The position numbers and the translations under genes are program-made. The notes under the pieces are model-generated. The model was not told the origin of the DNA, ran no database searches, and saw nothing but the letters and a program-made list of their open reading frames with translations. A DNA stretch of 22,320 nucleotides from a virus: the UHGV virus genome UHGV-2170153. One strand, given 5' to 3'. Shown here piece by piece: positions 1,419 to 22,320 of the stretch. Within the stretch, counting starts at the first letter, position 1, and every line of letters begins with the position of its first letter.

Positions 1419-2489
1419 TTATTTGATTTCAATTTTGTCCCACTCCCTGCCTCTGTCATCACGATACTGTGATGCCATGGTGTCCGACTTATGCCCGAGA
1501 AGATGTTGAGCAAACTTATCGCTTATCTGCTTCTCATAGAGTCTTGCAGCCAAACTGCGCAACTCGTGAAAGGTAGGCGGATCCCCTTCGAAGGAAAGAC
1601 CTGATGCTTTTCGTGCGCGCATAAAATACCTTGATACTGTGCCGGATGAAAGCGGTTCACGACGAGTAGATGCAATTATGGTTTCTCCGCCAAGAATCTC
1701 TTTGCATTTATCAAGTGTTTCCTTCATTGATATCCCGAGGGCATCAACATGCAATGTTATAGGGATGGCAATTTTTACGCCTGTTTTGCTTTGCTCGACA
1801 TAAAGATATCCATCTACGATATCAGACCACTTCATTTCGCATAAATCACCAACTCGCTGCCCGGTAACAACAGCCAGTTCCATTGCAAGTCTGAGCCAAC
1901 ATGGTGATGATTCTGCTGCTTGATAAATTTTCAGGTATTCGTCAGCCGTAAGTCTTGATCTCCTTACCTCTGATTTTGCTGCGCGAGTGGCAGCGACCGG
2001 GTTTGTTGTTATATGGCCTTCAGCTATTGCCTCTCGGAATGCATCGCTCAGTGTTGATCTGATTAACTTGGCTGATGCCGCCTTGCCCTCGTCTATGTAT
2101 CCATTGAGCATTGCCGCAATTTCTTTTGTGGTGATGTCTTCAAGTGGAGCATCAGGCAGACCTCTCCTTATTGCTTTAATTTTGCTCATGTAATTTATGA
2201 GTGTCTTCTGCTTGATTCCTCTGCTGGCGAGGATTTTTTCGTAGCGATCAAGCCATGAATGTAACGTAACAGAATTATCACTGTTGATTCTCGCTGTCAG
2301 AGGCTTGTGTTTGTGTCCTGAAAATAACTCAATGTTGGCCTGTATAGCTTCAGTGATTGCGATTCGCCTGTCTCTGCCTAATCCAAACTCTTTACCCGTC
2401 CTTGGGTCCCTGTAGCAGTAATATCCATTGTTTCTTATATAAAGGTTAGGGGGTAAATCCCGGCGCTCATGACTTCGCCTTCTTCCCAT
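1419..2489 (-). CDS. int: Integrase, tyrosine recombinase (lambda Int, 356 aa)
   Basis: Translation MGRRRSHERRDLPPNLYIRNNGYYCYRDPRTGKEFGLGRDRRIAITEAIQAN... and C-terminus ...HLLGHKSDTMASQYRDDRGREWDKIEIK match lambda Int; adjacent to att. Confidence 0.97.
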   Translation of the reverse strand: MGRRRSHERRDLPPNLYIRNNGYYCYRDPRTGKEFGLGRDRRIAITEAIQANIELFSGHKHKPLTARINSDNSVTLHSWLDRYEKILASRGIKQKTLINYMSKIKAIRRGLPDAPLEDITTKEIAAMLNGYIDEGKAASAKLIRSTLSDAFREAIAEGHITTNPVAATRAAKSEVRRSRLTADEYLKIYQAAESSPCWLRLAMELAVVTGQRVGDLCEMKWSDIVDGYLYVEQSKTGVKIAIPITLHVDALGISMKETLDKCKEILGGETIIASTRREPLSSGTVSRYFMRARKASGLSFEGDPPTFHELRSLAARLYEKQISDKFAQHLLGHKSDTMASQYRDDRGREWDKIEIK

Positions 2490-2685
2490 TTCTGATCCTC
2501 TTCAAAAGGCTACCTGTTACTGGTCGATTTAAGTCAACCTTTACCGCTGATTCGTGGAATAGATACTCTCTTCCATCCTTAACCGGAGGAGGGAATATCC
2601 TGCATTCGCGCACCCATCGACGAACTGTTTCAAGGCTTCTTGGGCGTCGCTGGCGAGCGTTCCACTCCTGAAGTGTCAAGTACAT
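2467..2685 (-). CDS. xis: Excisionase (lambda Xis, 72 aa)
   Basis: MYLTLQEWNARQRRPRSLETVRRWVRECRIFPPPVKDGREYLFHESAVKVDLNRPVTGSLLKRIRNGKKAKS; ATG (cat at 2683..2685); overlaps int start as in lambda; the upstream in-frame extension in the ORF track is not used. Confidence 0.95.
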   Translation of the reverse strand: MYLTLQEWNARQRRPRSLETVRRWVRECRIFPPPVKDGREYLFHESAVKVDLNRPVTGSLLKRIRNGKKAKS

Positions 2686-2710
2686 CGCAAAGTCTCCGCA
2701 ATTACACGCA

Positions 2711-2733
2711 AGAAAAAGCCGCATTGATGCGGC
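2711..2733 (-). terminator. Candidate intrinsic terminator on minus strand between the 114-aa gene and xis
   Basis: Minus-strand hairpin GCCGCA-tcaa-TGCGGC followed by TTTTTC (plus-strand aaaaagccgcattgatgcggc). Confidence 0.45.
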
Positions 2734-2802
2734 GATGGTAGGTCTGGATATCATTGAGCAATGAACAGGCCTCACCGAGTGTGAGGCGGTGTTATTTCAT
2801 GG

Positions 2803-3147
2803 TTAGTCCTTGCGTAGCTCGCTGATTCTTCTGTAAGTCTCTGGTGCTTTGTTTCCGTGTATCTTCATTTCAGACTTCAACAGAGCAACGAGGGAATCCC
2901 ATTCGTTGAGGATGCCTTTGAATGTCGGAACGCGCTTTGCAACCTTGTCGAATGAATCTCTGATTTCTGGAATCTGCTCAACAAGTGCAACGCATCGTCG
3001 GAAATCGGCTGCGTCATGTGGAGCGCCGAAGTGATGACCATAGATATTCTTTTTCAGTCCACACGCGATTGAGGCAAGAGTTGCGCTACTGATGCCGACA
3101 TCGCCAGTCGATTGCCATTTCAAAATCTTCATAGCCAAATCTGACAT
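2803..3147 (-). CDS. Hypothetical phage protein (114 aa)
   Basis: ATG at 3147 with GGAGA 6 nt upstream; no family recognised by eye. Confidence 0.7.
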   Translation of the reverse strand: MSDLAMKILKWQSTGDVGISSATLASIACGLKKNIYGHHFGAPHDAADFRRCVALVEQIPEIRDSFDKVAKRVPTFKGILNEWDSLVALLKSEMKIHGNKAPETYRRISELRKD

Positions 3148-3219
3148 TTCTTGTCTCCATAAAACAAAACTCGCCGTAGCGAGTTCAGATAAAAGAAATC
3201 CCCGCGAGTGCGAGGATTG

Positions 3220-3504
3220 TTATTCATTGCCGATATTTACCTTTATCGCGAACACCTTTACCGGTTTATCGCCGAAGTGCAGATGTGTGATTGTCTTGAT
3301 TTCATACCCGTCATACGGGACGTCAATTCTACGGCTGGAATCGTCGCGCTTCGGATATCCCTTTGTGATAATCAGGCGGTCATATTCCCGGAACATAATT
3401 CGCTTATTCCAGTAGTCATTACACAGGCGATATTCTTCTGTTTTCTCCCCGCGAATCATGGCATCGAAGTATTCACCTTTGACGGCAAGTTGCAGGTTAG
3501 CCAC
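3220..3504 (-). CDS. Small phage protein, possibly ASCH/DUF3850-like (94 aa, GTG start)
   Basis: GTG at 3504 preceded by GGAGG (plus cctcc 3511..3515); overlaps upstream gene stop by 8 nt; N-terminus VANLQLAVKGEYFDAMIRGEKTEEYR resembles ASCH-type folds (weak, by eye). Confidence 0.6.
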   Translation of the reverse strand: MANLQLAVKGEYFDAMIRGEKTEEYRLCNDYWNKRIMFREYDRLIITKGYPKRDDSSRRIDVPYDGYEIKTITHLHFGDKPVKVFAIKVNIGNE

Positions 3505-4801
3505 GGTTAACCTCCTGCGGCGGTTCCGGTAGCGGCATCCAGTGAGTTGCTTGCTCAATACCATTACCCGGCTTAATCGTTGCATCTCCGCGCCGAAAGG
3601 TGCTTCCGGTATAGCGTGCGGAGCATATTAGCGGTTCAACCAGAGAGCTATCGAAATTCACCGAAATAAGCACGTTCTGGCCCTTTTCAGGCATTCGATC
3701 ACTACAGCTTATCCAACCATCCGGAGTTACCGGAGAGTTGCCCGACAGTCTACGCAAAACAGCCTTAACAGCCTCAATACGGTCATCATCGCAATTTTCC
3801 AGCGTATCTATGCGGTCGAGCATGATGATGGCGTTATCAATATCAGGATTGCCAGTCCACTCATTACCGCGATTGGATTCGGCAGCCTGGTTGCCAGATG
3901 CTGGTTGATTGTCGGCTTGGCTATAGCTAACAGCACGGCAGGCATCCTCTACGCCTTTAACTGCATCTGCGCAGTAGTTATAGCGATTGCATTCCACTAA
4001 CTTCTGCTTGAGATTTTCAATTGCTTGCGCGACATCAGCCTGTATTTCTGGAACTGGCGGAACGGCTGTTTGCTCTCGAACGTCATTAGTCGCTATCGGT
4101 TCTGCTGCCAACTGACTGGCATATTTGTTAATGGTAACGATAAGCTCTTGCTCAGCCTCATCCAGACAATCACCGATACCTCGCCTGTCACCGTCAAAAT
4201 CATCGAAATCGGCACGAATCTTGGCAACCTCCCGGATTGCGGACAACACCTCACTAGGAATTACCGGATAGTTGGTTGACGTTTCCGCGATTTCCCGAAA
4301 ATTATTGGTTGACGAATTCTTATTTTCCCGAAAGTTTCCGGACTGAAGCATGGCGGCGCGGCAGGCGTTAAGCGCGTTTTGCACGCGTTTAGCGTTCTGT
4401 ACTTCGTATTTAGGTGCGGCTGCCAATGCCCATAGCCAACCAATTTCATAGCTATCAGCTTTTGATAGAGCACATTCCATTTCCAGTGTTATTTTCTTAG
4501 GTACGAGTTGCCAATCATCTGGCACTACCGGCGCTGGCAGCTCGCGATACAGCGAGATTACACGACGCGGGTCCGCATATTTATCTGGCGGACACTGAAA
4601 TATCTCACCGAAACCATACTTCCTGACATCGCGCAGTTCCTCTTCATCAGTCCATGCCACCGGTTCTGCTTCCAGCGATGCCAGAGCAATCCGTGCCAGC
4701 TCTTCCGCTTCTTCTGCTGGCAGTACAACGTTGCTACCAGGTCCGTATGTTTCGCGCCACTGCTTGATTGTCAGCAGTCGCTCTTTGGTAATAGTGATCA
4801 T
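3497..4801 (-). CDS. Phage protein with C-terminal DUF551-like domain (434 aa)
   Basis: ATG at 4801 with AAGGAA upstream; ATGA overlap with upstream gene stop; C-terminus ...PDGWISCSDRMPEKGQNVLISVNF...ATHWMPLPEPP typical of DUF551 prophage proteins. Confidence 0.75.
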   Translation of the reverse strand: MITITKERLLTIKQWRETYGPGSNVVLPAEEAEELARIALASLEAEPVAWTDEEELRDVRKYGFGEIFQCPPDKYADPRRVISLYRELPAPVVPDDWQLVPKKITLEMECALSKADSYEIGWLWALAAAPKYEVQNAKRVQNALNACRAAMLQSGNFRENKNSSTNNFREIAETSTNYPVIPSEVLSAIREVAKIRADFDDFDGDRRGIGDCLDEAEQELIVTINKYASQLAAEPIATNDVREQTAVPPVPEIQADVAQAIENLKQKLVECNRYNYCADAVKGVEDACRAVSYSQADNQPASGNQAAESNRGNEWTGNPDIDNAIIMLDRIDTLENCDDDRIEAVKAVLRRLSGNSPVTPDGWISCSDRMPEKGQNVLISVNFDSSLVEPLICSARYTGSTFRRGDATIKPGNGIEQATHWMPLPEPPQEVNRG

Positions 4802-5313
4802 GCCGCGTTTCCTTCTTTCTTATTAACAATTACACCGTCATATATTTCATTAAGGTGCCCTCTCAACTCCATGCGCCTTAATGCAGATAACATGTAATCG
4901 CATTCAACCTGCTTATTTCCAGTAAATGGCTTATCGTCAGGATTACCCCAACAGCAATTACCCTTGGGCCACCCATGCACTTTCCGTACTCTTCCGTTAA
5001 CAACGTGAAGTAATCCCCAGCCAGGTGGTAAATCCTCAATTGAAATAATTCCCGGCTCACTAATAAAGAATCGCCAGTCGCCCATTCCAAGAGACGGATT
5101 TTTACGAAAACGCTTTTTTCTATCTGCCAACAAGTCAGCACGAGAACATTTCGCCTCTATCAGGCATGATGCTGAATTTCTGAATCCCATAGCATCTGGC
5201 TGTTCTCCGGTACTGGTTACAGCCATAAAGCGGTCATGAAAACAAACCTTGAACCCGTTGCGCTTAAGGAACTTGTACGCAATCTGACAGAGTTCGCGGT
5301 GTGTTAGCGCCAT
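4798..5313 (-). CDS. Hypothetical phage protein with possible PD-(D/E)xK-like nuclease motif (171 aa)
   Basis: ATG at 5313 with AAGGAGAG upstream (the track's upstream M at 5355 lacks an RBS); motif ...EQPDAMGF...CLIEAKCSRADL suggests D...E-x-K catalytic arrangement (inference by eye). Confidence 0.6.
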   Translation of the reverse strand: MALTHRELCQIAYKFLKRNGFKVCFHDRFMAVTSTGEQPDAMGFRNSASCLIEAKCSRADLLADRKKRFRKNPSLGMGDWRFFISEPGIISIEDLPPGWGLLHVVNGRVRKVHGWPKGNCCWGNPDDKPFTGNKQVECDYMLSALRRMELRGHLNEIYDGVIVNKKEGNAA

Positions 5314-5314
5314 A

Positions 5315-6022
5315 TCACTCTCCTTTGATGCGAATGCCAGTAGCGCGGATTGCATCGATGACTTCAGAAACTTTGTATGCCATTACCGTTTGGTAATCAT
5401 CGTGAAAATCTGTTCGATGAAGCATGCTGCTACGTTCCGGGAGCGTTATTTCCCGAGCATCCAGTTCCTTAACGCGTTCCTCCAGTTCGTAGACCCTGCA
5501 TTGTTCTCTATCATCAATCAGATATAACCCAAGACATTCGCTTTCTACCCAACCGCCAAAATCATGATCGTAACGCTCACATGAAAACTCACCGTCACCG
5601 TCCTTTGTTGGAATGGTGTAACTGTCTAATGGGCCACCGTACGTCGGCACATTTCCTAATGTCGGATGCTCAATCCACATAAAAAATGCACGTCCGGTTA
5701 TTGGGCAAATATCTGGCCGCCATTGGTTACGAACAGCGTTGGTTTCTGATAATTCTTCAGCGTGTTGTTTTACTTCCTCAAGCTCAACACGCAGCTTCCC
5801 TACCGTTAGCGCAATATCCTCGTTCTCCTGATCGCGGCTTTTGATGTATTGCAGGTTTCTTTCCCGTTCATCCAACAATGCCAGCGCGATATCTGGCGAA
5901 AAGTGCTTCATAAAATCGTTAAGCGCATTAATTCGCTGATCGAAAGGCATTACAGGTGCTTCACCAGCAATTTTTGTTTTTTCAGCGATTTCACGAAGCT
6001 TTTGATAATCAATCTTGCTCAC
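5315..6022 (-). CDS. Ead/Ea22-like family protein (235 aa, GTG start)
   Basis: GTG at 6022 with AAAGGAGG 6 nt upstream; N-terminal coiled-coil [17 protein letters not shown]...; resembles Ea22-like proteins of lambdoid b-region (memory, moderate). Confidence 0.65.
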
Positions 6023-6186
6023 TGGTTGCCTCCTTTGCGCCACATCGCATTCAGATATTTGTTTTGATTCACTGACGGAAAAGAATTTCTCTTAAGTAAT
6101 TCCTCTCTCGATGGCATTGGCTTTACGCGTTGGCGAATAATCATTTCTGCCGGAAGAATGCCGGGATTGTATGCAAGTCCTCTCAT
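6019..6186 (-). CDS. Small hypothetical protein (55 aa); alternative start at 6204
   Basis: ATG at 6186 with AGGAA 6 nt upstream; in operon context between coupled genes; short, so uncertain. Confidence 0.4.
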
Positions 6187-6196
6187 GGTAAATTCC

Positions 6197-6490
6197 TCAG
6201 TCATTACTGATAGCGCCATAGCGTGAGCGGTAATTACGCAGGCGCGGGTCAATTTCAGGGAAGTGGGTATATGTGGCTTTGCGGAATGGTCGGATTGATG
6301 TCTGGTAAATTCGCTCGCGTTCTTCTTTCTCTGCAAGCCATATACAATGGCGAAATTCCTTTTCCTCTTTCGTTTCCTGCGGTAGCGACATTATCCGGTC
6401 GTAGTTTTTTCCGAATTTATCCAGCACCTCCAATACGGAATTGCCGGAACAGCGGCGCGGGTCATCCGCACCATACAGAGGCGCTGGCAT
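6197..6490 (-). CDS. Hypothetical phage protein (97 aa)
   Basis: ATG at 6490 with AGGAG 6 nt upstream; basic C-terminal half. Confidence 0.65.
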
Positions 6491-6506
6491 GTTTTTCTCC
6501 TGTTGA

Positions 6507-7054
6507 TTATTTAGCTAACTTTTTCCAGATCGCTGAAACGTATTTGGCTTGGTGAATGGCATCATCAAGCGCGTTGTGGCGAGTTCCTTTGAATGGCATA
6601 TCTCGCTTAGGGTCGAATCCTATTGCCTTCCCAAGTTCGACGATTGTTCTTACGTCGCGGTCATTCCACCACTGCCACGGAACTGGCTGCCCTGTCAGCG
6701 AATAACTGTTGCGGAGAATAACGCAGTCAAATGATGCTCCATTCCCCCAAACCTGAACGAATTTGTGGTTAGCGTTCTTTATGATGAATTCAGATAACCA
6801 TGAAAGAGCCGTTGAGAGCTCTTGAGTGTTGCTGGTTAGCGATTTTCTGGCTTCTTCACTCTGTTCCATCCACCATAAAATCGTTGAAGCGTCAGGACGC
6901 GCCCGATATCGCATTGATGACTCAAGCGAGATATTTACCGAGAACTCTTCTCCTGTTTCTCCGGTATTCGGGTCAAAGAATACCGCCCAATAGAAATAAC
7001 TGGCGCGTATGGCCCGTTGCCCATTGTTTCAAGGTCAACCATCAAGTGATTCAT
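6507..7054 (-). pseudogene. DnaQ-like (DEDDh) 3'-5' exonuclease interrupted by a frameshift at a G3/C3 homopolymer (~6983..6990)
   Basis: N-terminal 39-aa frame from ATG 7054 (RBS AAGGA) encodes Exo I motif MNHLMVDLETMGNGPYAPVISIG then stops; the rest (AVFFDPNTGE...GNGASFDCVIL...HNALDDAIHQAKYV) continues in the +1 frame with no start codon; one extra G would fuse the frames into ~178 aa. Confidence 0.7.
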
Positions 7055-7062
7055 GTAAGTCC

Positions 7063-7578
7063 TTAAATTGCGTGAATAGCGTGACGAGGGAAGGGGAGAG
7101 TTACTGGTGCAAAGGGGATGTCGTCGTCAAAATCCATAGGTGGTTCGCTGTGATTTCCCTGCTGCTGAGGTTGCTGTCTTTGTTGCTGACCATTATTTCG
7201 CTGAGGTGAAGACTGTTCATTGCCTCCTTGCTTGCCACCAAGCATTTGCATGGTTCCACCAACGCCCACGATGACTTCGGTAGTGAACCGATCCTGTCCG
7301 CTTTGATCCTGCCATTTTCTTGTCCGCAATTTGCCTTCAAGATAAACCTCAGAGCCTTTTCGCAGATATTCGCTGGCAATTTCTGCCAGTTTCCCGCTCA
7401 TTACCACGCGGTGCCACTCCGTCTGCTCCTTTTGCTCTCCAGTTTGCTTATCACGCCATTGTTCTGACGTAGCAACGGTAAGGTTTGCAAATGCCGTTCC
7501 TGATGGTGAATATCTGATTTCTGGATCATGCCCAAGGCGACCAATAATGATCACCTTATTTACGCCTCTGCTTGCCAT
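7063..7578 (-). CDS. ssb: Single-stranded DNA-binding protein (171 aa) with 15-aa extension past the conserved DDDIPF tip
   Basis: [59 protein letters not shown]... OB-fold core closely resembles E. coli SSB; ...[11 protein letters not shown] then continues [15 protein letters not shown] before TAA. Confidence 0.9.
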
Positions 7579-8832: not shown

Positions 8833-9801
8833 TTAGTAGGTTATTTTTGTTGCGAATACTTCGCCTTTTACGATGGCTGTTATGATATTTTTAGCAACAT
8901 CTTCTGATGCGCCAACCTTGATAATGTCAGCAAGTATTTTGTTATTTACTTCTTTCCGGTGAGCTTTATCCTTTGCTCTACGCTCTTCTTCGTCCTTGAT
9001 TCTTTTTTCTTCTGCTATTCTGGCTTGCTCTTTTGCTTCAGCCTCGCGCCGGATTCGTTCAGCCTCCTCCTGTGCTTTTCGGCGTTCTGCTTCAATTGCC
9101 GCCTGCTTTTCTCTTTCAGCTCGTTCTGCTGCCTCTTTTGCTTCGCGCTGTGCTCGTTGCTCGGCTTCAATGCGTTCACGCTCTGCACGTTCCGCTGCGG
9201 CCTTAGCTTCTGCTTCTCGCCTTGCTGCTGCTTCAATTTCGGCTTTTGCCTTTGCTTCGGCTTCTGCTCTGGCTTTCTCTTCAGCTTCTCTTTTTAAGCG
9301 TTCTTCATGCTCTCGCTTTTCCTGCTCCGCTTTGAGTCTTGCCTCTTCTCTTTGGCGGTCAAATTCGCGATCCATCAAAATCGCTATTTCATGGTCAGAC
9401 TCAATTTGCTTTGCGAGAGCTTCAGCTGCTGCCTTAGCTTCTTCTTCGGCTTTAATCCGTGCCTGTTCCTCCTCATAATCAGTAAGAGGCTGGCGCGCCT
9501 TGGCTTTCAGTTCATCAAGGCGATCGCGCACTGTCTTGCGGTTAGCATCAATTAGCTTTGGAATTTCCTTCAGTTCAGCAACAAGGTCTTTGCCAAGACC
9601 ATCGAGATATGTTTTCGTCTGCGCAACTTTATACGCCAGAGAAGCGATCTCCTTTCTGCCCTTTGCCGTTGTGATATCAGGCACAAAGGACATAACTTCA
9701 CGTTCAACCTTTTGGAGAATTTCTTCAATCTGGTCGGCAGACTGAAATACAGTCATCGCATTTGCTTTTTCAATAACAACTAAATCTGTTACTTCACTCA
9801 T
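8833..9801 (-). CDS. Coiled-coil Ala/Glu/Lys/Arg-rich phage protein of unknown function (322 aa)
   Basis: ATG at 9801 with GGAGGA 4 nt upstream (the track's upstream M at 9897 lacks an RBS); long low-complexity central region EAEAKAKAEIEAAARREAEAKAAAERAERERIEAEQRAQREAKE... Confidence 0.75.
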   Translation of the reverse strand: MSEVTDLVVIEKANAMTVFQSADQIEEILQKVEREVMSFVPDITTAKGRKEIASLAYKVAQTKTYLDGLGKDLVAELKEIPKLIDANRKTVRDRLDELKAKARQPLTDYEEEQARIKAEEEAKAAAEALAKQIESDHEIAILMDREFDRQREEARLKAEQEKREHEERLKREAEEKARAEAEAKAKAEIEAAARREAEAKAAAERAERERIEAEQRAQREAKEAAERAEREKQAAIEAERRKAQEEAERIRREAEAKEQARIAEEKRIKDEEERRAKDKAHRKEVNNKILADIIKVGASEDVAKNIITAIVKGEVFATKITY

Positions 9802-10092
9802 ATATCCTCCATCAAAAAAAATCGCCCTCACACTGGAGGGAAAAGAAGATTTCCAATAATCAGAACAAGTCGGCTCCTGTTTAGTTACGAGCGACATTGC
9901 TCACATAGCAGACTCGTAAATCTGCTATAGGCGCTTATTCGCATCGCATGACAACATCAAATTTTTCGAGATTACTTTGTCGCAACAATCCTTTTTCTAC
10001 GCGGTCAGCTTTTCTATAATTATCAAATTAGAAATGTTTAATTACTTCTTTCGTTTCTCGCTCTATAACTTCAACAATGTATTTCTTATTCA

Positions 10093-12961: not shown

Positions 12962-13807
12962 ATGACAAATACAGCAAAAATACTCAACTTCGGCAGAGGT
13001 AACTTTGCCGAACAGGAGCTAAGAGTGGCTGATATCGATGATGGTTACACCAGATTCGCTAACGAGCTGCTGGAAGCTATCGCAAGTGCCGATTTAACCG
13101 CTCGCCAGTTGAAAGTTATGCTGGCCTACGTCCGGAAAACATATGGATTCAATAAGAAAACAGATCGAATAGCCGATGAGCAAATTGCTCAGTTAACAGG
13201 ACTGTCAAGGCAGAATGTTAACAAGGCTAAAAAAGAACTGATTTCAATGAATTGCCTGTTTATGGATGGAAATAAAATCGGTGTAAACAGGGAGGTATCT
13301 GCGTGGCAATTCAGCAAGTGTCTCCAAGTTAGCAACTTTGTCTCGAAGTTAGAGACAAAAAATGTCTCCAAATTAGAGACACTCAATGTCTCGAAGTTAG
13401 AGACACACAAAAGACATTCTTTAAAGACAAAAGAAAATATTAATAAACCCCCTATATCCCCCAAAAAAATTTCTCAGAAGTTCGACCCGCTAGAAACAGA
13501 GTTGCCTGATTGGTTATCGGCAGAAACATGGTTGTCGTGGGTTACCTATCGCAAGGAGATAGGTAAGTCGATCAAGTCTAAGCAAAGCGTCACTCAGGCT
13601 ATCAACGTTCTAAGCAGAAGTCTGGAGAAGGGATATACACCTGAAGAAATTATAAACCAGAGCATCGCCAGTGGTTGGCAGGGGATTTTTGAACCCAAGA
13701 CTCCAAAGGGGAAATCTCAACCGAGGCCGCAGCAGCGAGCTATGCAGGAAAACTTTGCCGCCAAAGATTACGGGCAAACTGAAATGCCTTCATGGGCGCA
13801 GGAGTGA
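12962..13807 (+). CDS. O: Replication initiator O-like protein (281 aa)
   Basis: MTNTAKILNFGRGNFAEQELRVADIDDGYTRFANELLEA... matches lambda O N-terminus; AGGAG RBS; iterons inside the gene. Confidence 0.9.
   Translation: MTNTAKILNFGRGNFAEQELRVADIDDGYTRFANELLEAIASADLTARQLKVMLAYVRKTYGFNKKTDRIADEQIAQLTGLSRQNVNKAKKELISMNCLFMDGNKIGVNREVSAWQFSKCLQVSNFVSKLETKNVSKLETLNVSKLETHKRHSLKTKENINKPPISPKKISQKFDPLETELPDWLSAETWLSWVTYRKEIGKSIKSKQSVTQAINVLSRSLEKGYTPEEIINQSIASGWQGIFEPKTPKGKSQPRPQQRAMQENFAAKDYGQTEMPSWAQE
13319..13470. repeat. ori: Origin of replication: four ~19-bp iterons (TGTCTC-N7-GAGACA type, e.g. tgtctcgaagttagagaca) followed by an A/T-rich tract
   Basis: Iterons start near 13319, 13339, 13363, 13387; A/T-rich 13406..13470; encode VSKLET repeats within O. 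Confidence 0.8.
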
Positions 13808-13809
13808 AC

Positions 13810-14655
13810 ATGACGCTGGATGAAAAGATCTCCCAACTGGAGAAAAAACTTGCAGAATTGAGTTCTCCGCCAATTGCTATCGAGCATACAGCTGTAGAAA
13901 TTGGCACTGGCATCTGTGAAAAACATGGTGAGTTTGAGCAGCGTAACCGTTACTCGACTGGGCCAATTAAGTTTGCCTCAAGACCTAGCGAATGCCCGGA
14001 ATGCATGAGAGATGAGCTTATTCGGCTACAGGCAGAGAAGATTAAAATCGACGAAGAATCACGTAAGCGCAATGTCGAGTTTCTGTTGAATAATCTTGAT
14101 ATTCCTGAACGATTCAAGGGTTGCACACTACAGAACTACGAGCCAGTCAACGACGATGCAAAGAGAGTGCTCAGGGTGTGTCAGGCATACGCCAGCAAAT
14201 GGCCTGAGAGGTTACAGAAAGGCGGTGGGCTGGTTATGTGCGGAAAGCCTGGTACTGGAAAGAATCATCTTGCACTGGCTATCGCCCGGCACGCAATTAC
14301 GGAACATCAAAGCTCAGCTATTTTCACAACGGCGCTGAAAATTGCCAGAGAATATAAATCAACATGGTCTAAAAACTCCACCCGCACAGAGGATGAAGTG
14401 ATCCGACAGTTCACTAAACCTGACCTGCTAATTATCGATGAGGTTGGTGTGCAGTTTGGAAGCGAGGCGGAAAAGATGATCATGTTCGAAATCATCAACA
14501 CCCGCTACGAGTGCATGAAGCCAACAATCCTGATTAGCAACCAGAGCAAAGATGAACTGTCTGCATTCATTGGTGAGCGTGTTATTGACAGGATGAATGA
14601 TGGCGGCGGGTGCACTCTTGCGTTTACATGGGATAGTTACAGGAGCAGATCGTGA
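13810..14655 (+). CDS. DnaC/IstB-type helicase loader ATPase (281 aa), in place of lambda P
   Basis: Walker A GKPGTGKNHLALAI and Walker B DLLIIDEVG; ATG 13810 with GGAG 6 nt upstream; track start 13792 overlaps O and is rejected. Confidence 0.85.
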   Translation: MTLDEKISQLEKKLAELSSPPIAIEHTAVEIGTGICEKHGEFEQRNRYSTGPIKFASRPSECPECMRDELIRLQAEKIKIDEESRKRNVEFLLNNLDIPERFKGCTLQNYEPVNDDAKRVLRVCQAYASKWPERLQKGGGLVMCGKPGTGKNHLALAIARHAITEHQSSAIFTTALKIAREYKSTWSKNSTRTEDEVIRQFTKPDLLIIDEVGVQFGSEAEKMIMFEIINTRYECMKPTILISNQSKDELSAFIGERVIDRMNDGGGCTLAFTWDSYRSRS

Positions 14656-14942
14656 CTGGAAAAGAAATCATCCTGGAATATCTGAAAACTCATGAACAAT
14701 TCTCCCCACATGAATTAGCACTGATCACCGGAATACCAAATAACAGAATCGCTCAAGCAGCAAGGCATATGGTGAAACAAGGGAATTTGAGTGTTGTTGA
14801 GCGTAAGTGGAAGACGGTTATTTATGCAAAACGCAAAGTGAAGAAGGAGCCAATTAAAAGAAATCCAGATGGTACGGGGTGGGGATGTGCAAATCCAATG
14901 ACGGCGTTTATTAATAGGGCGCTTATGGAGGTAAGGCAATGA
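14652..14942 (+). CDS. ren: Ren-like protein (96 aa, GTG start)
   Basis: MTGKEIILEYLKTHEQFSPHELALITG... parallels lambda Ren N-terminus (MTGKEAIIHYLGTHNSF, memory); AGGAG RBS; GTGA overlap with loader stop. Confidence 0.75.
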   Translation: MTGKEIILEYLKTHEQFSPHELALITGIPNNRIAQAARHMVKQGNLSVVERKWKTVIYAKRKVKKEPIKRNPDGTGWGCANPMTAFINRALMEVRQ

Positions 14943-16723: not shown

Positions 16724-17438
16724 GTTAATAAATGGCAATGCCATCAAAATGACAAGCATTGAAATCGCTGAGTTGGTGGGTAAGCGTCATGACAATGTGA
16801 AACGTACCATCGAAACGCTGGCTAAAAATGGTGTTATCCGGCTTCCTCAAATTGAGGTTTCCGAAAGAATCAATAACTTAGGGTTCAATGTTCAGTACGA
16901 GCATTACGTCTTCGAGGGCGAACAAGGTAAGCGAGACAGTATTGTCGTTGTAGCCCAGTTGTCGCCGGAATTCACGGCTCGCCTTGTTGACCGTTGGCGA
17001 GAGCTTGAAGAAGCTGCGGTTAATATCCCAAAAACGCTACCAGAAGCGTTGCGCCTTGCTGCTGACCTTGCTGAGCAGAAAATGCAACTGGAAAACCAGC
17101 TCGCAATTGCCGCACCTAAAGTTGAGTTTGCCGATCGCGTTGGCGAGGCCAGCGGAATTTTGATTGGAAACTTTGCAAAGGTTGTTGGAATTGGTCCAAA
17201 CAAACTGTTTGCGTGGATGCGCGATCACAAAATCCTTATTGCTTCAGGTTCCCGGCGCAATGTGCCAATGCAGGAATATATGGATCGCGGCTATTTCACA
17301 GTGAAAGAAACAGCGTTCAACACAAATCACGGAATACAGATATCGTTCACCACAAAAATCACCGGGCGTGGTCAACAGTGGCTGACCAGAAGGCTGCTCT
17401 ATAGCGGAATGCTGAAAGTAACAGGGGAGGCTGCTTAA
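16716..17438 (+). CDS. Rha-family phage regulatory protein with KilA-C antirepressor-type C-terminal domain (240 aa)
   Basis: N-terminal TSIEIAELVGKRHDNVKRTIETL (Rha-like); C-terminal KLFAWMRDHKILIASGSRRNVPMQEYMDRGYFTVKE (Ant/KilAC-like); GAGGAAG RBS. Confidence 0.8.
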   Translation: MNELINGNAIKMTSIEIAELVGKRHDNVKRTIETLAKNGVIRLPQIEVSERINNLGFNVQYEHYVFEGEQGKRDSIVVVAQLSPEFTARLVDRWRELEEAAVNIPKTLPEALRLAADLAEQKMQLENQLAIAAPKVEFADRVGEASGILIGNFAKVVGIGPNKLFAWMRDHKILIASGSRRNVPMQEYMDRGYFTVKETAFNTNHGIQISFTTKITGRGQQWLTRRLLYSGMLKVTGEAA

Positions 17439-17728
17439 TGGCTAAACTACGCAAAGAAGCGCGCGGCAGAGAATGCCAGGTACGTATTTACGGCGTATGC
17501 AATGGCAACCCTGAAACTACAGTTCTGGCACATTACCGGATGGCTGGAATTTGCGGAACGGGAATGAAGCCTGACGACCTGATCGGAGCATGGGCTTGTA
17601 GCGCGTGTCACGATGAAATCGACCGACGCACCCATAAACTCGACAACAAAGACGCCAGACTTTACCACCTGGAAGGCGTGATCAGGACGCAGGCGATACT
17701 GCTGAAGGAGGGGAAGATTAAGCCATGA
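17438..17728 (+). CDS. Cys-rich nin-region protein, DUF1364-like (96 aa)
   Basis: MAKLRKEARGRECQVRIYGVCNGNPETTVLAHYRMAGICGTGMKPDDLIGAWACSACHDEID...; family call from memory, moderate. Confidence 0.7.
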   Translation: MAKLRKEARGRECQVRIYGVCNGNPETTVLAHYRMAGICGTGMKPDDLIGAWACSACHDEIDRRTHKLDNKDARLYHLEGVIRTQAILLKEGKIKP

Positions 17729-18087
17729 ACGAATATCAGTTTGTGCTTCCATACCCGCCGTCGGTGAACACCTACTGGCGAAGACGGGGAAGCCAATACT
17801 ACATCAGCGATAAAGGCCAGAAATACCGAAAAGACGTTCAGCAAATCATCCGCCAACTTAAGTTAGACATTTTCACCAAATCACGACTCCGCATCAAAGT
17901 CATCGCAGACGTTCCAGACTCCCGCCGCCGCGACCTCGACAACATCCTGAAAGGTTTACTCGACTCCCTTATCCACGCCGGATTTGCGGAAGACGACGAG
18001 CAATTCGATGACATTCGCGTAATTCGTGGTGTGAAAGTACCAGGCGGACGGCTTGGAATAAAAATCACCGAACTGGAGAACGCATGA
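17725..18087 (+). CDS. rusA: Holliday-junction resolvase RusA (120 aa)
   Basis: LPYPPSVNTYWRRRG...DSRRRDLDNILKGLLDSLIHAGFAEDDEQFDDIRVIRGVKVPGGRLGIKITE matches the RusA family. Confidence 0.9.
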   Translation: MNEYQFVLPYPPSVNTYWRRRGSQYYISDKGQKYRKDVQQIIRQLKLDIFTKSRLRIKVIADVPDSRRRDLDNILKGLLDSLIHAGFAEDDEQFDDIRVIRGVKVPGGRLGIKITELENA

Positions 18088-20002: not shown

Positions 20003-20326
20003 ATGAAGATGCCAGAAAAACATGACCTGTTAGCCGCCATTCTCGCGGCAAAGGAACAAGGCATCGGGGCAATCCTTGCGTTTGCAATGGCGTACCTTCG
20101 CGGCAGATATAATGGCGGTGCGTTTACAAAAACAGTAATCGACGCAACGATGTGCGCCATTATCGCCTGGTTCATTCGTGACCTTCTCGACTTAGCCGGA
20201 CTAAGTAGCAATCTCGCTTATATAACGAGCGTGTTCATCGGCTACATCGGTACTGACTCGATTGGTTCGCTTATCAAACGCTTCGCTGCTAAAAAAGCCG
20301 GAGTAGAAGATGGTGGAAATCAATAA
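20003..20326 (+). CDS. S: Holin S (107 aa; dual start Met1/Met3)
   Basis: [63 protein letters not shown]... matches lambda S. Confidence 0.95.
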
Positions 20327-20786
20327 TCAACGTAAGGCGTTCCTCGATATGCTGGCGTGGTCAGAGGGAACTGATAACGGACGACAGAAAACCAGAAATC
20401 ATGGTTATGACGTCATTGTAGGTGGAGAGCTATTCACTGATTACTCCGATCACCCTCGTAAACTTGTCACGCTAAACCCAAAACTCAAATCAACAGCAGC
20501 CGGTCGCTATCAGCTTCTTTCCCGTTGGTGGGATTCCTATCGTAAGCAGCTTGGCCTGAAAGACTTCTCTCCGAAAAGCCAAGACGCTGTGGCATTGCAG
20601 CAGATTAAAGAGCGTGGCGCTTTACCGATGATTGATCGCGGTGATATCCGTCAGGCTATCGATCGTTGCAGCAATATCTGGGCTTCACTGCCGGGCGCTG
20701 GTTATGGTCAGTTCGAGCATAAGGCTGACAACCTGATTGCAAAATTCAAAGAAGCTGGCGGAACGGTCAGAGAGATTGAGGTATGA
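20310..20786 (+). CDS. R: Endolysin R, lytic transglycosylase (158 aa)
   Basis: [61 protein letters not shown]... matches lambda R. Confidence 0.95.
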
Positions 20787-21220
20787 GCAGAGTCACCGCG
20801 ATTATTTCCGCTCTGGTTATCTGCATCATCGTCTGTCTGTCATGGGCTGTTAATCATTACCGTGATAACGCCATCGCCTACAAAGACCAGCGCGATAAAG
20901 CCACGTACATCATCGCTGACATGCAGAAGCGTCAACGTGATGTAGCTGAACTCGATGCCAGATATACAAAGGAACTTGCTGATGCTAACGCGACTATCGA
21001 AAGTCTCCGTGCTGATGTTTCTGCTGGGCGTAAGCGCCTGCAAGTCGCCGCCACCTGTGCAAAGTCAACGACCGGAGCCAGCAGCATGGGCGATGGAGAA
21101 AGCCCAAGACTTACAGCAGATGCTGAACTCAATTATTACCGTCTCCGAAGTGGGATCGACAGGATAACCGCGCAGGTTAACTACCTGCAGGAGTACATCA
21201 GGACGCAATGCCTTCGATGA
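20783..21220 (+). CDS. Rz: Spanin inner-membrane subunit Rz (145 aa)
   Basis: N-terminal TM segment [18 protein letters not shown], coiled-coil; ATGA overlap with R stop. Confidence 0.9.
20982..21167 (+). CDS. Rz1: Spanin outer-membrane lipoprotein Rz1 (61 aa), embedded in Rz in the +1 frame
   Basis: [36 protein letters not shown]... lipobox-like VSAC then Pro-rich; AAGGAA RBS 8 nt upstream of ATG 20982. Confidence 0.75.
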
Positions 21221-21394
21221 TAGCGATAATTTTACTCATCATCCTTCACATCTGGCTCTGTAGACAGGGTGGTGATCACTTCTGGAGTGAATCCAGATTA
21301 AACATCTCATTGCTGATGCTTGATATTGAGCATCTGGCGCGCGGTAAGGGGCTGCGTTGAGATAAGAGCCAGTTCATTACAAATACCAGGATTT

Positions 21395-21420
21395 AGCCTC
21401 GCATTCGCGGGGCTTTTTAT
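21395..21420 (+). terminator. Intrinsic terminator downstream of Rz
   Basis: AGCCTCGC-attc-GCGGGGCT followed by TTTTTATATCTG. Confidence 0.6.
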
Positions 21421-21562
21421 ATCTGAATTTCACAGCGCATCTCACGCGCATATTAACGAGAGCCTTTCAGTAAGCGAGCCTGAGAAATGCCGTTATAGGT
21501 GGCGACCTCTCTCGGGCGGCTTTTCTGTGAGACAGGCTCACTTTCTAAAAGGTAAAGACGCT

Positions 21563-22060
21563 ATGAAAGCAATCACGCTTTTTAATACACCGATCCGTGT
21601 TGATGAATCAGGAATGATCTGCCTCACTGATATGTGGAAAGCCAGTGGTAAAAGTGAATCTGAATCGCCTTACCACTACCTGCGAAACAAGCAGACCAAA
21701 GAGTTCTTAGCCGAGCTGGAGAAAAACCACGAATCTGTGGTTTTTACTGAGCGCGGTGTACACGGTGGAACATATGGCGGGAAGTTTGTTGCTTACGATT
21801 ATGCGGCTTGGTTAAACCCCGGGTTCAAGTACGCGGCCTATAAAGTCCTCGATGACTACTTCACCGGAGAACTTCAGCATCGCAACAGCTTAAGTGCGCA
21901 GCTCAACATGAAATGTCATGAGTTTGACCAGAAGAAAGACATGGCGAGCTTCTGCGGACAAGGGCTGGCAGCATGGCGCTATACGAAGCCAGTGTTGGTC
22001 GCTGAGATTAACTCCCTGGCTAACCAGCTGCAGATTACGATCCCCGGGCTTCCGGGATGA
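21563..22060 (+). CDS. KilA-N domain-containing protein (165 aa)
   Basis: ATG 21563 with AAAGGTAAAGA upstream; ...ICLTDMWKASGKSESESPYHYLRNKQTKEFLAELEK... typical KilA-N; the track's longer start at 21320 spans the terminator and is rejected. Confidence 0.7.
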   Translation: MKAITLFNTPIRVDESGMICLTDMWKASGKSESESPYHYLRNKQTKEFLAELEKNHESVVFTERGVHGGTYGGKFVAYDYAAWLNPGFKYAAYKVLDDYFTGELQHRNSLSAQLNMKCHEFDQKKDMASFCGQGLAAWRYTKPVLVAEINSLANQLQITIPGLPG

Positions 22061-22320
22061 GTGATCGTGTTATTGAATGCGCCTCCAGAGCGGGGCGCGA
22101 CTTCTCAGAGTTCATGAAAGGCGAGAAGGGCATGATGGAAGCATTGGCCTCGGTGGATGAGTTTGGCGAGCAGCTGCGCCTCAACGGCTGTGTCAATCAT
22201 CACTTTGTTAGCTACATGATGCGGAACTCGATCATGCAGGCATTCATGGACATGGCAAAAGCCGAGAGGAAAGAAGAGCGCCGGCGTAAGCTAGCGGAAG
22301 CAAAAGCAAAAGTGAAGTAG
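22057..22320 (+). CDS. Hypothetical phage protein (87 aa), ends with TAG at the window edge
   Basis: ATGA overlap with upstream stop; basic C-terminus KAERKEERRRKLAEAKAKVK; start uncertain. Confidence 0.45.
   Translation: MSDRVIECASRAGRDFSEFMKGEKGMMEALASVDEFGEQLRLNGCVNHHFVSYMMRNSIMQAFMDMAKAERKEERRRKLAEAKAKVK

Follow-up and report, generated by a model that had tools for sequence, protein, structure and literature searches.

The stretch of DNA considered here, positions 2803..6490 of the viral genome UHGV-2170153, carries seven genes on its minus strand. Our results indicate that it is very probably a routine, strongly mosaic accessory region, of the type named exo-xis in lambda and ea in P22 (PMC7093339, PMC10834534), in a lambda-like prophage of E. 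coli. We use "the window" for all 22,320 nucleotides that were analysed. We can state with good confidence that the prophage is lambdoid and sits at the lambda attachment site, and that its PL (early-left) operon holds the seven genes in a distal portion that is not essential. The order along the window is ybhC, a lambda-type int, xis, the seven genes, a 3'-5' exonuclease gene, ssb, an Erf/Rad52-like annealase gene, an N-like antiterminator gene and a CI-like repressor gene, and the plus strand carries CII-like, O-like and DnaC-like genes. An earlier reading of the letters (the original prediction) had placed the cluster at the "lambda b/ea position" and had proposed that it forms an undescribed functional module. 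The first half of this needs correcting, since the genes occupy the ea (exo-xis) slot between xis and the recombination genes but not the b region, and the second half did not hold up.

Published accounts of the exo-xis region show it as mosaic: the C-terminal domains of Ea22 proteins are shuffled, and the DUF551 domain is portable (PMC10834534, PMC7093339). The present stretch resembles the lambda exo-xis and P22 ea regions in its position in the PL operon, in its Ea22/Ead-like and EaA/DUF551-like genes, and in being non-essential and mosaic, whereas ea8.5, orf61, orf63 and orf60a of the lambda region (described in PMC10834534 and PMC7093339) are missing from it. When the 3.7-kb stretch is searched by megablast, 3961 of the 5426 complete E. 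coli genomes and 637 phage records prove to contain pieces of it. Coverage at a single place never reaches 80% of the stretch in any of the 5,426 E. coli genomes or 50,697 phage records (the highest values are 66–67%), and none of them has its exact combination of alleles. In annotated relatives the equivalent slots are occupied by DUF4752, eaa, Lar, DUF7739 and HNH. The kind of region is well known; the combination of alleles is new.

How freely the seven families (Table 1) combine can be seen in two sets of viral contigs. The first is anchored on abc2 and consists of 58 contigs with at least 3.3 kb downstream of that gene. DUF2737 is present in all 58 loci, Ea22-like genes in 44, DUF551 in 40, the 114-amino-acid (aa) gene in 21, the EaA-like N-terminus in 20, ASCH in 14 and the nuclease-like gene in five. 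The families combine in 22 different ways in these loci, and only two of the 58 have the full set of seven. The second set, 80 IMG/VR contigs picked for a 97–99% identical nuclease-like gene, shows 49 arrangements of the window's families. Here the Ea22-like gene upstream of the nuclease-like gene is 36–97% identical, often partial and often separated by extra genes, and the gene downstream has only its first 20–330 residues in common with the EaA-like protein of the window.

The trio of DUF551, nuclease-like and Ea22-like genes, whose co-occurrence was to support the proposed module, fares no better. Ea22-like genes are found in 77% of loci near the nuclease-like gene and in 75% of loci without it, and DUF551 in 77% and 68% (Fisher p=1 for both), which is background frequency. 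Conserved co-occurrence, whose absence the original prediction had named as grounds for refutation, is largely lacking. Two local linkages remain, one between abc2 and DUF2737, the other between the nuclease-like gene and an EaA-like N-terminus. What we see is a string of cassettes that are exchanged independently, not one machine.

The original prediction also held that none of the genes has an assigned function. This is incorrect: Ea22 proteins have a published pro-lysogenic phenotype (PMC7093339), and the 97-aa protein is recognisably Abc2. The latter matches PF11043 (Anti-RecBCD_p2) over profile positions 1–97 of 97 (7.3e-62, 206 bits against a cut-off of 25), phrog_656, "abc2 anti-RecBCD" (1.7e-53), and PDB entry 8b1t, "Anti-RecBCD protein 2", residue for residue from 1–97 to 1–97 (1.4e-56). 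By these matches it is a P22-type Abc2, an inhibitor of RecBCD. It has the length of P22 Abc2 (97 aa), matches it end to end and likewise lies beside phage recombinase genes. We see no difference at the sequence level. Only the partners differ, a Rad52/Erf-like annealase, a single-stranded-DNA-binding protein (SSB) and a 3'-5' exonuclease here, erf and abc1 in P22. The mechanism and biochemistry of Abc2 on RecBCD have been published (PMC9836394). For the protein of the window, we infer RecC binding and RecBCD modification from sequence identity. From what is known of the family, it would bind RecBCD and redirect or inhibit it to the benefit of the annealase, SSB and exonuclease encoded upstream, and abc2 is functionally part of that recombination module.

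Another appealing aspect of the abc2-anchored set concerns the 55-aa protein, which matches PF10930 (DUF2737; 4.8e-31, 106.8 bits, cut-off 25). In all 58 contigs DUF2737 follows abc2 directly, either 14 nt or 301 nt downstream, and it also follows divergent abc2 alleles that are only 61–67% identical. Because the pairing is this strict even with divergent alleles, our results suggest that DUF2737 is functionally tied to the anti-RecBCD function, a link so far undescribed. A search of the literature on DUF2737 yielded nothing beyond one incidental mention.

The 171-aa protein was said to have a possible PD-(D/E)xK motif, and this suggestion gains considerable support from invariant residues and from the fold. 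The protein has no Pfam match even at E<=10. Its close homologues (59–99% identity) are spread across the Enterobacterales, and in an alignment of 29 of them D40 and E53-x-K55 are invariant within the block "GEQPDA-GFR ... LIEAKCSRAD". In the AlphaFold2 model (predicted local distance difference test score, pLDDT, 77.8; predicted template-modelling score, pTM, 0.74) D40 stands right before one strand, E53 ends the next strand and K55 lies right behind it. The protein presents the alpha-beta-beta-beta-alpha-beta core and the D ... (D/E)xK residues of the PD-(D/E)xK superfamily. An exhaustive profile search gathered 3167 clusters at 50% identity (E<=1e-3), and in 40 members only 35–45% identical to the query E37, D40, E53 and K55 are invariant.

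The best PDB sequence match of the family profile is 3dnx, with an E-value of 0.4 that is not significant alone, and the alignment falls exactly on the catalytic block. We take 3dnx to be a representative of the MmcB-like family; MmcB is a Caulobacter endonuclease of mitomycin-C repair. The 40 distant relatives give sub-threshold Pfam matches to Hjc (7/40), MmcB-like (5/40) and UPF0102 (2/40). The 171-aa protein itself qualifies neither as MmcB-like (PF06319, gathering score 22 bits) nor as an Hjc resolvase (PF01870). It differs from MmcB-like proteins (PF06319; 3dnx, SPO1766) and archaeal Hjc (PF01870) in lacking a Pfam match, in having just 22% identity to 3dnx, in being phage-borne and in carrying an extra conserved C-terminal helical part (N133 K134 Q135 E137 C138 ... 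R146 R147). We conclude that it represents a distinct PD-(D/E)xK family without a Pfam model, with MmcB-like proteins and Hjc as its nearest relatives. Judged from sequence and model, it is most likely an active Mg2+-dependent endonuclease. The close homologues also share, without exception, H5, C9 and C138, and almost without exception C50; these residues could form a metal site. We found no published characterisation of the family, which comprises at least 3,000 clusters at 50% identity.

The genomic setting of the relatives points to what the enzyme may do. Phage records with a homologue number 641, virulent Ackermannviridae and Vibrio siphoviruses among them, and bacterial relatives are found in Shewanella, Alteromonas, Salinicola, Flavobacterium and one actinobacterium. 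In the virulent Kuttervirus EP75 (locus L200, 3480..4097) a relative of about 205 aa abuts a downstream DNA primase gene. In the Vibrio siphovirus vB_VpS_C2 (L201, 3363..3980) a relative of the same approximate size overlaps the downstream DNA primase gene by 4 nt, and because a DNA polymerase gene and two helicase genes also lie just upstream, this relative belongs to a replication module. The fold, the invariant catalytic residues and this setting are the reasons why we predict an endonuclease with a role in DNA metabolism, whose substrate would probably be the DNA of phage or host as it is replicated, recombined or repaired.

Annotation has served the family poorly. RefSeq, through the Prokaryotic Genome Annotation Pipeline (PGAP), gives the nuclease-like gene just as a 179-bp "frameshifted hypothetical protein" (L001 5107..5285, L002 5475..5653, L003 4997..5175), whereas tblastn at those loci finds an intact 171-aa frame with 98–99% identity. 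We considered the possibility that the gene is mostly decayed in related prophages and rejected it on this ground. In the RefSeq record of phage P7 the homologue upf89.0 (L198 3269..3784) is named "minor tail protein". Both names look like artefacts of annotating a family that has no model. We also rejected a toxin-antitoxin or nuclease-inhibitor pair with the Ea22-like gene, since the upstream neighbour varies freely.

The other proteins are modular or small. The Ea22-like and DUF551 labels of the original prediction are confirmed by Pfam. The Ea22-like protein matches PF13935 (Ead_Ea22) over residues 9–104 of its 242-aa open reading frame (ORF) (7.9e-18, 65.8 bits, cut-off 27) and several PHROGs, each on a separate segment; a coiled-coil module forms its N-terminus, and the C-terminal part is variable. 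For its C-terminal 130 residues no PDB chain is found at E<=1 except an unrelated galactosidase at 0.93. It shares the N-terminal Ead_Ea22 coiled-coil signature with lambda Ea22, whose C-terminal domain has been solved by nuclear magnetic resonance (NMR), but we find no homology to that domain, which is consistent with shuffled C-terminal domains (PMC10834534). The pro-lysogenic phenotype reported for the family (PMC7093339) means that such proteins tilt the decision to lysogeny, and the present variant may do likewise. The Ea22-like genes that precede the nuclease-like gene in various genera are dissimilar save for a common "...AAGI-x-VKGE" tail, encoded at 5315..5360 (-) of the window and found again at L005 7367..7966, L006 7400..7990, L011 7516..7995 and L020 7515..7925. 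The tail is probably a conserved module-boundary sequence for recombination.

The 434-aa protein carries DUF551 (PF04448) as a full-profile match at residues 362–429 (1.2e-21, 77.7 bits, cut-off 22). Twelve PHROGs match it on different segments, and for this reason we class it, from its sequence matches, as a modular, EaA-type protein. The ASCH-like label of the 94-aa protein is only partly supported. The protein matches phrog_625 (1.1e-50), and its 86–95% identical homologues are labelled "ASCH domain-containing protein" in RefSeq, but Pfam ASCH (PF04266) stays below threshold (14.5 bits against 21.2) with just 23 residues aligned. PDB sequence searches gave no match for the 114-aa, ASCH-like, EaA-like and Ea22-like proteins, and an NCBIfam scan of the proteins gave none either.

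The 114-aa protein is confidently predicted to adopt an all-alpha fold without a solved relative. Its gene is the only one of the seven that does not tightly abut its neighbours, and pairs of terminator-like hairpins stand on both sides of it. It looks like a separately inserted cassette beside xis. In the database homologues P0135, P0137, P0153, P0158, P0172 and P0173 parts of the protein are fused to Kil, ERF, Ea22-like or dATP/dGTP pyrophosphohydrolase segments, which indicates deletions joining the gene to upstream PL-operon genes in decaying prophages.

Reading the minus strand confirmed seven coding regions (Table 1). The starts of the DUF2737, Ea22-like and nuclease-like genes were refined from the longest ORFs, and the Pfam and PHROG matches of these three begin exactly at the refined starts.

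Table 1. Features of the stretch and its flank towards the integrase gene, in the order of minus-strand transcription
Feature	Position in window	Strand	Remarks
abc2 (97 aa)	6197..6490	-	Pfam, PHROG and PDB matches
DUF2737 gene (55 aa)	6019..6186	-	ATG at 6186, GAGGAA upstream
Ea22/Ead-like gene (235 aa)	5315..6022	-	GTG start at 6022
Nuclease-like gene (171 aa)	4798..5313	-	ATG at 5313; 1-nt gap from Ea22-like stop
EaA-like multi-module gene (434 aa)	3497..4801	-	C-terminal DUF551
Small ASCH-like gene (94 aa)	3220..3504	-	GTG start
Intergenic gap, 72 nt	3148..3219	-	Two tandem terminator-like hairpins
Terminator-like hairpins, ASCH-like/114-aa gap	3218..3197 and 3186..3167	-	
Gene for predicted all-alpha protein (114 aa)	2803..3147	-	Last before xis
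Terminator-like hairpins (two), 114-aa gene/xis gap	2787..2718	-	
Excisionase gene (xis)	end at ~2685	-	
Lambda-type integrase gene	1419..2489	-	

The three stop/start overlaps noted earlier are all present. GTGA at 6019..6022 joins the DUF2737 stop to the Ea22-like GTG start, ATGA at 4798..4801 joins the stop of the 171-aa gene to the start of the 434-aa gene, and an 8-nt overlap at 3497..3504 joins the stop of the 434-aa gene to the ASCH GTG. A Shine-Dalgarno-like purine run lies 5–8 nt before every downstream start, and from abc2 through the ASCH-like gene no gap exceeds 10 nt. Such overlaps are not peculiar to the cluster, because among the mechanically listed ORFs at least four further 4-nt overlaps occur elsewhere in the window (13792..14655/14652..14942, 17438..17728/17725..18087, 20310..20786/20783..21220 and 21320..22060/22057..22320). 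Dense packing with overlapping or abutting stop and start codons is common among early phage genes. On the minus strand of 2400..7200 there is one promoter-like match, a weak one, and the terminator-like hairpins are confined to the gaps on either side of the 114-aa gene. The seven genes are probably read together as a single PL-driven, N-antiterminated transcript.

The cluster had also been described as lying in a hypervariable region where host-interaction or defence cargo is carried. The region is indeed both accessory and highly variable, and Abc2 neutralises RecBCD, the sole counter-defence function demonstrated for any family in the stretch. The search for a defence system, on the other hand, came back empty: a PADLOC-DB 2.0 scan gave no match for six of the seven proteins, and the seventh, the Ea22-like coiled coil, matched BrxC at E=0.0065, which is coiled-coil noise.

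Several observations weigh against the view that the stretch is simply a string of exchangeable cassettes. First, 55 of 78 loci retain the ATGA in which the nuclease-like stop meets the EaA-like start. In a survey of single genomes of 35 other species (19 Enterobacterales, 16 others), about 9–11 of the 19 Enterobacterales have an EaA-like gene right after the nuclease-like gene (63–91% nuclease identity). This pair may be functionally linked rather than freely assorting. Second, a block of about 2 kb with the Ea22-like, nuclease-like and EaA-like genes is 97% identical at the nucleotide level to P1/P7-type plasmid prophages. The hea operon of phage P7 (upf88.3/upf89.0/upf89.5) has the three genes in the same order with about 97% nucleotide identity over about 1.9 kb, although it sits in a P1-type plasmid prophage under C1 control, has other flanking genes and is annotated as "unknown protein function". 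The shared block could be a selected trio or simply a recombination patch. Third, a mechanism can be named for only three of the seven proteins. Finally, our loci come from E. coli prophages that are close relatives of each other and not phylogenetically independent, so that our figures are descriptive.

One could argue, tentatively, for a more ambitious reading than that of a routine accessory region. The nuclease-like gene would belong to a large phage-borne family with a dedicated role in replication or recombination, coupled to primase in virulent phages and translationally coupled to a modular EaA/DUF551 protein in enterobacterial temperate phages, possibly for targeting or regulation. 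Separately, the all-alpha fold of the 114-aa protein would be new, and its function specific to phages. We regard this as possible but would not bet on it.

A narrower proposal, which we consider unlikely, is that the nuclease and the downstream EaA-like/DUF551 protein form a two-gene unit in enterobacterial temperate phages, with the EaA modules as adaptor or regulator and the remaining genes as unrelated cargo. The conserved ATGA junction speaks for it, as does the enrichment of the EaA-like N-terminal segment near the nuclease-like gene (82% versus 28% of loci without it; Fisher p=0.003 in the abc2-anchored set). Order and 4-nt overlap are also kept in Citrobacter, Kluyvera, Klebsiella, Cedecea and Enterobacter (63–91% nuclease identity), and rare nuclease-DUF551 fusions exist. 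However, 15 of 53 loci carry EaA-like genes in the absence of the nuclease-like gene, and the nuclease-like gene has no EaA-like/DUF551 neighbour in any of the 16 non-Enterobacterales genomes sampled, nor in lytic phages. The downstream protein keeps a short N-terminal segment only and varies strongly in the rest, as expected from a recombination boundary inside the gene, and the loci that show the linkage are not independent of each other.

It is very unlikely that the 171-aa protein is a defence effector, that is, a nuclease that protects the lysogen or excludes superinfecting phages, for the following reasons. First, the gene lies in a PL operon that is repressed in the lysogen, and with one weak promoter-like match on the minus strand it is probably silent there. 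Second, PADLOC gives no match. Third, its homologues look like core genes and stand beside primase in virulent phages, and these primase-adjacent relatives lead us to favour a role in phage DNA metabolism over one in defence of the lysogen. Fourth, the closest relatives, MmcB-like proteins and Hjc, are enzymes of repair and resolution.

Most improbable of all is a single undescribed defence or anti-defence module in which the products of the seven (or six coupled) genes act jointly: tight packing with three stop/start overlaps, the hypervariable accessory slot, a genuine counter-defence protein in Abc2 and a predicted nuclease would suit it, but all seven families meet in only two of the 58 abc2-anchored loci, no record holds 80% of the stretch, the neighbours of the nuclease-like gene occur at background frequency, its relatives are found by themselves in unrelated bacteria and, within virulent phages, in replication modules, PADLOC matches are at noise level, and stop/start overlaps are common across the window.

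Two further observations concern the PL operon upstream of the stretch. Between abc2 and ssb, at 6507..7054 (-), the gene for an Rv2179c-like 3'-5' exonuclease is broken into ORFs of 39 aa and 135 aa. The split near 6988 comes from one G fewer in a run of Gs than in the intact 182-aa gene of E. coli Combat2C1, and it reflects a genuine pseudogene or else a sequencing error in the homopolymer. Upstream of the annealase gene, at 8833..9897 (-), a 354-aa protein very rich in E, A, K and R belongs to phrog_1376, of unknown function, and the DNA of its gene has a strong AT skew (-0.615 at 9001..9500). An Rfam scan of the whole window found no RNA family.

Our analysis tidies up the cluster: what lies between xis and the recombination genes is an ordinary exo-xis mosaic, not a defence or anti-defence system in hiding, and the supposedly "unknown" genes include that of the well-studied RecBCD inhibitor Abc2. 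Three points remain useful: the nuclease family, which is very widespread and lacks a Pfam model, the strict pairing of abc2 with DUF2737, and the confidently predicted fold of the 114-aa protein, of which no relative has been solved. As a strict companion of abc2, DUF2737 may deserve study in relation to RecBCD.

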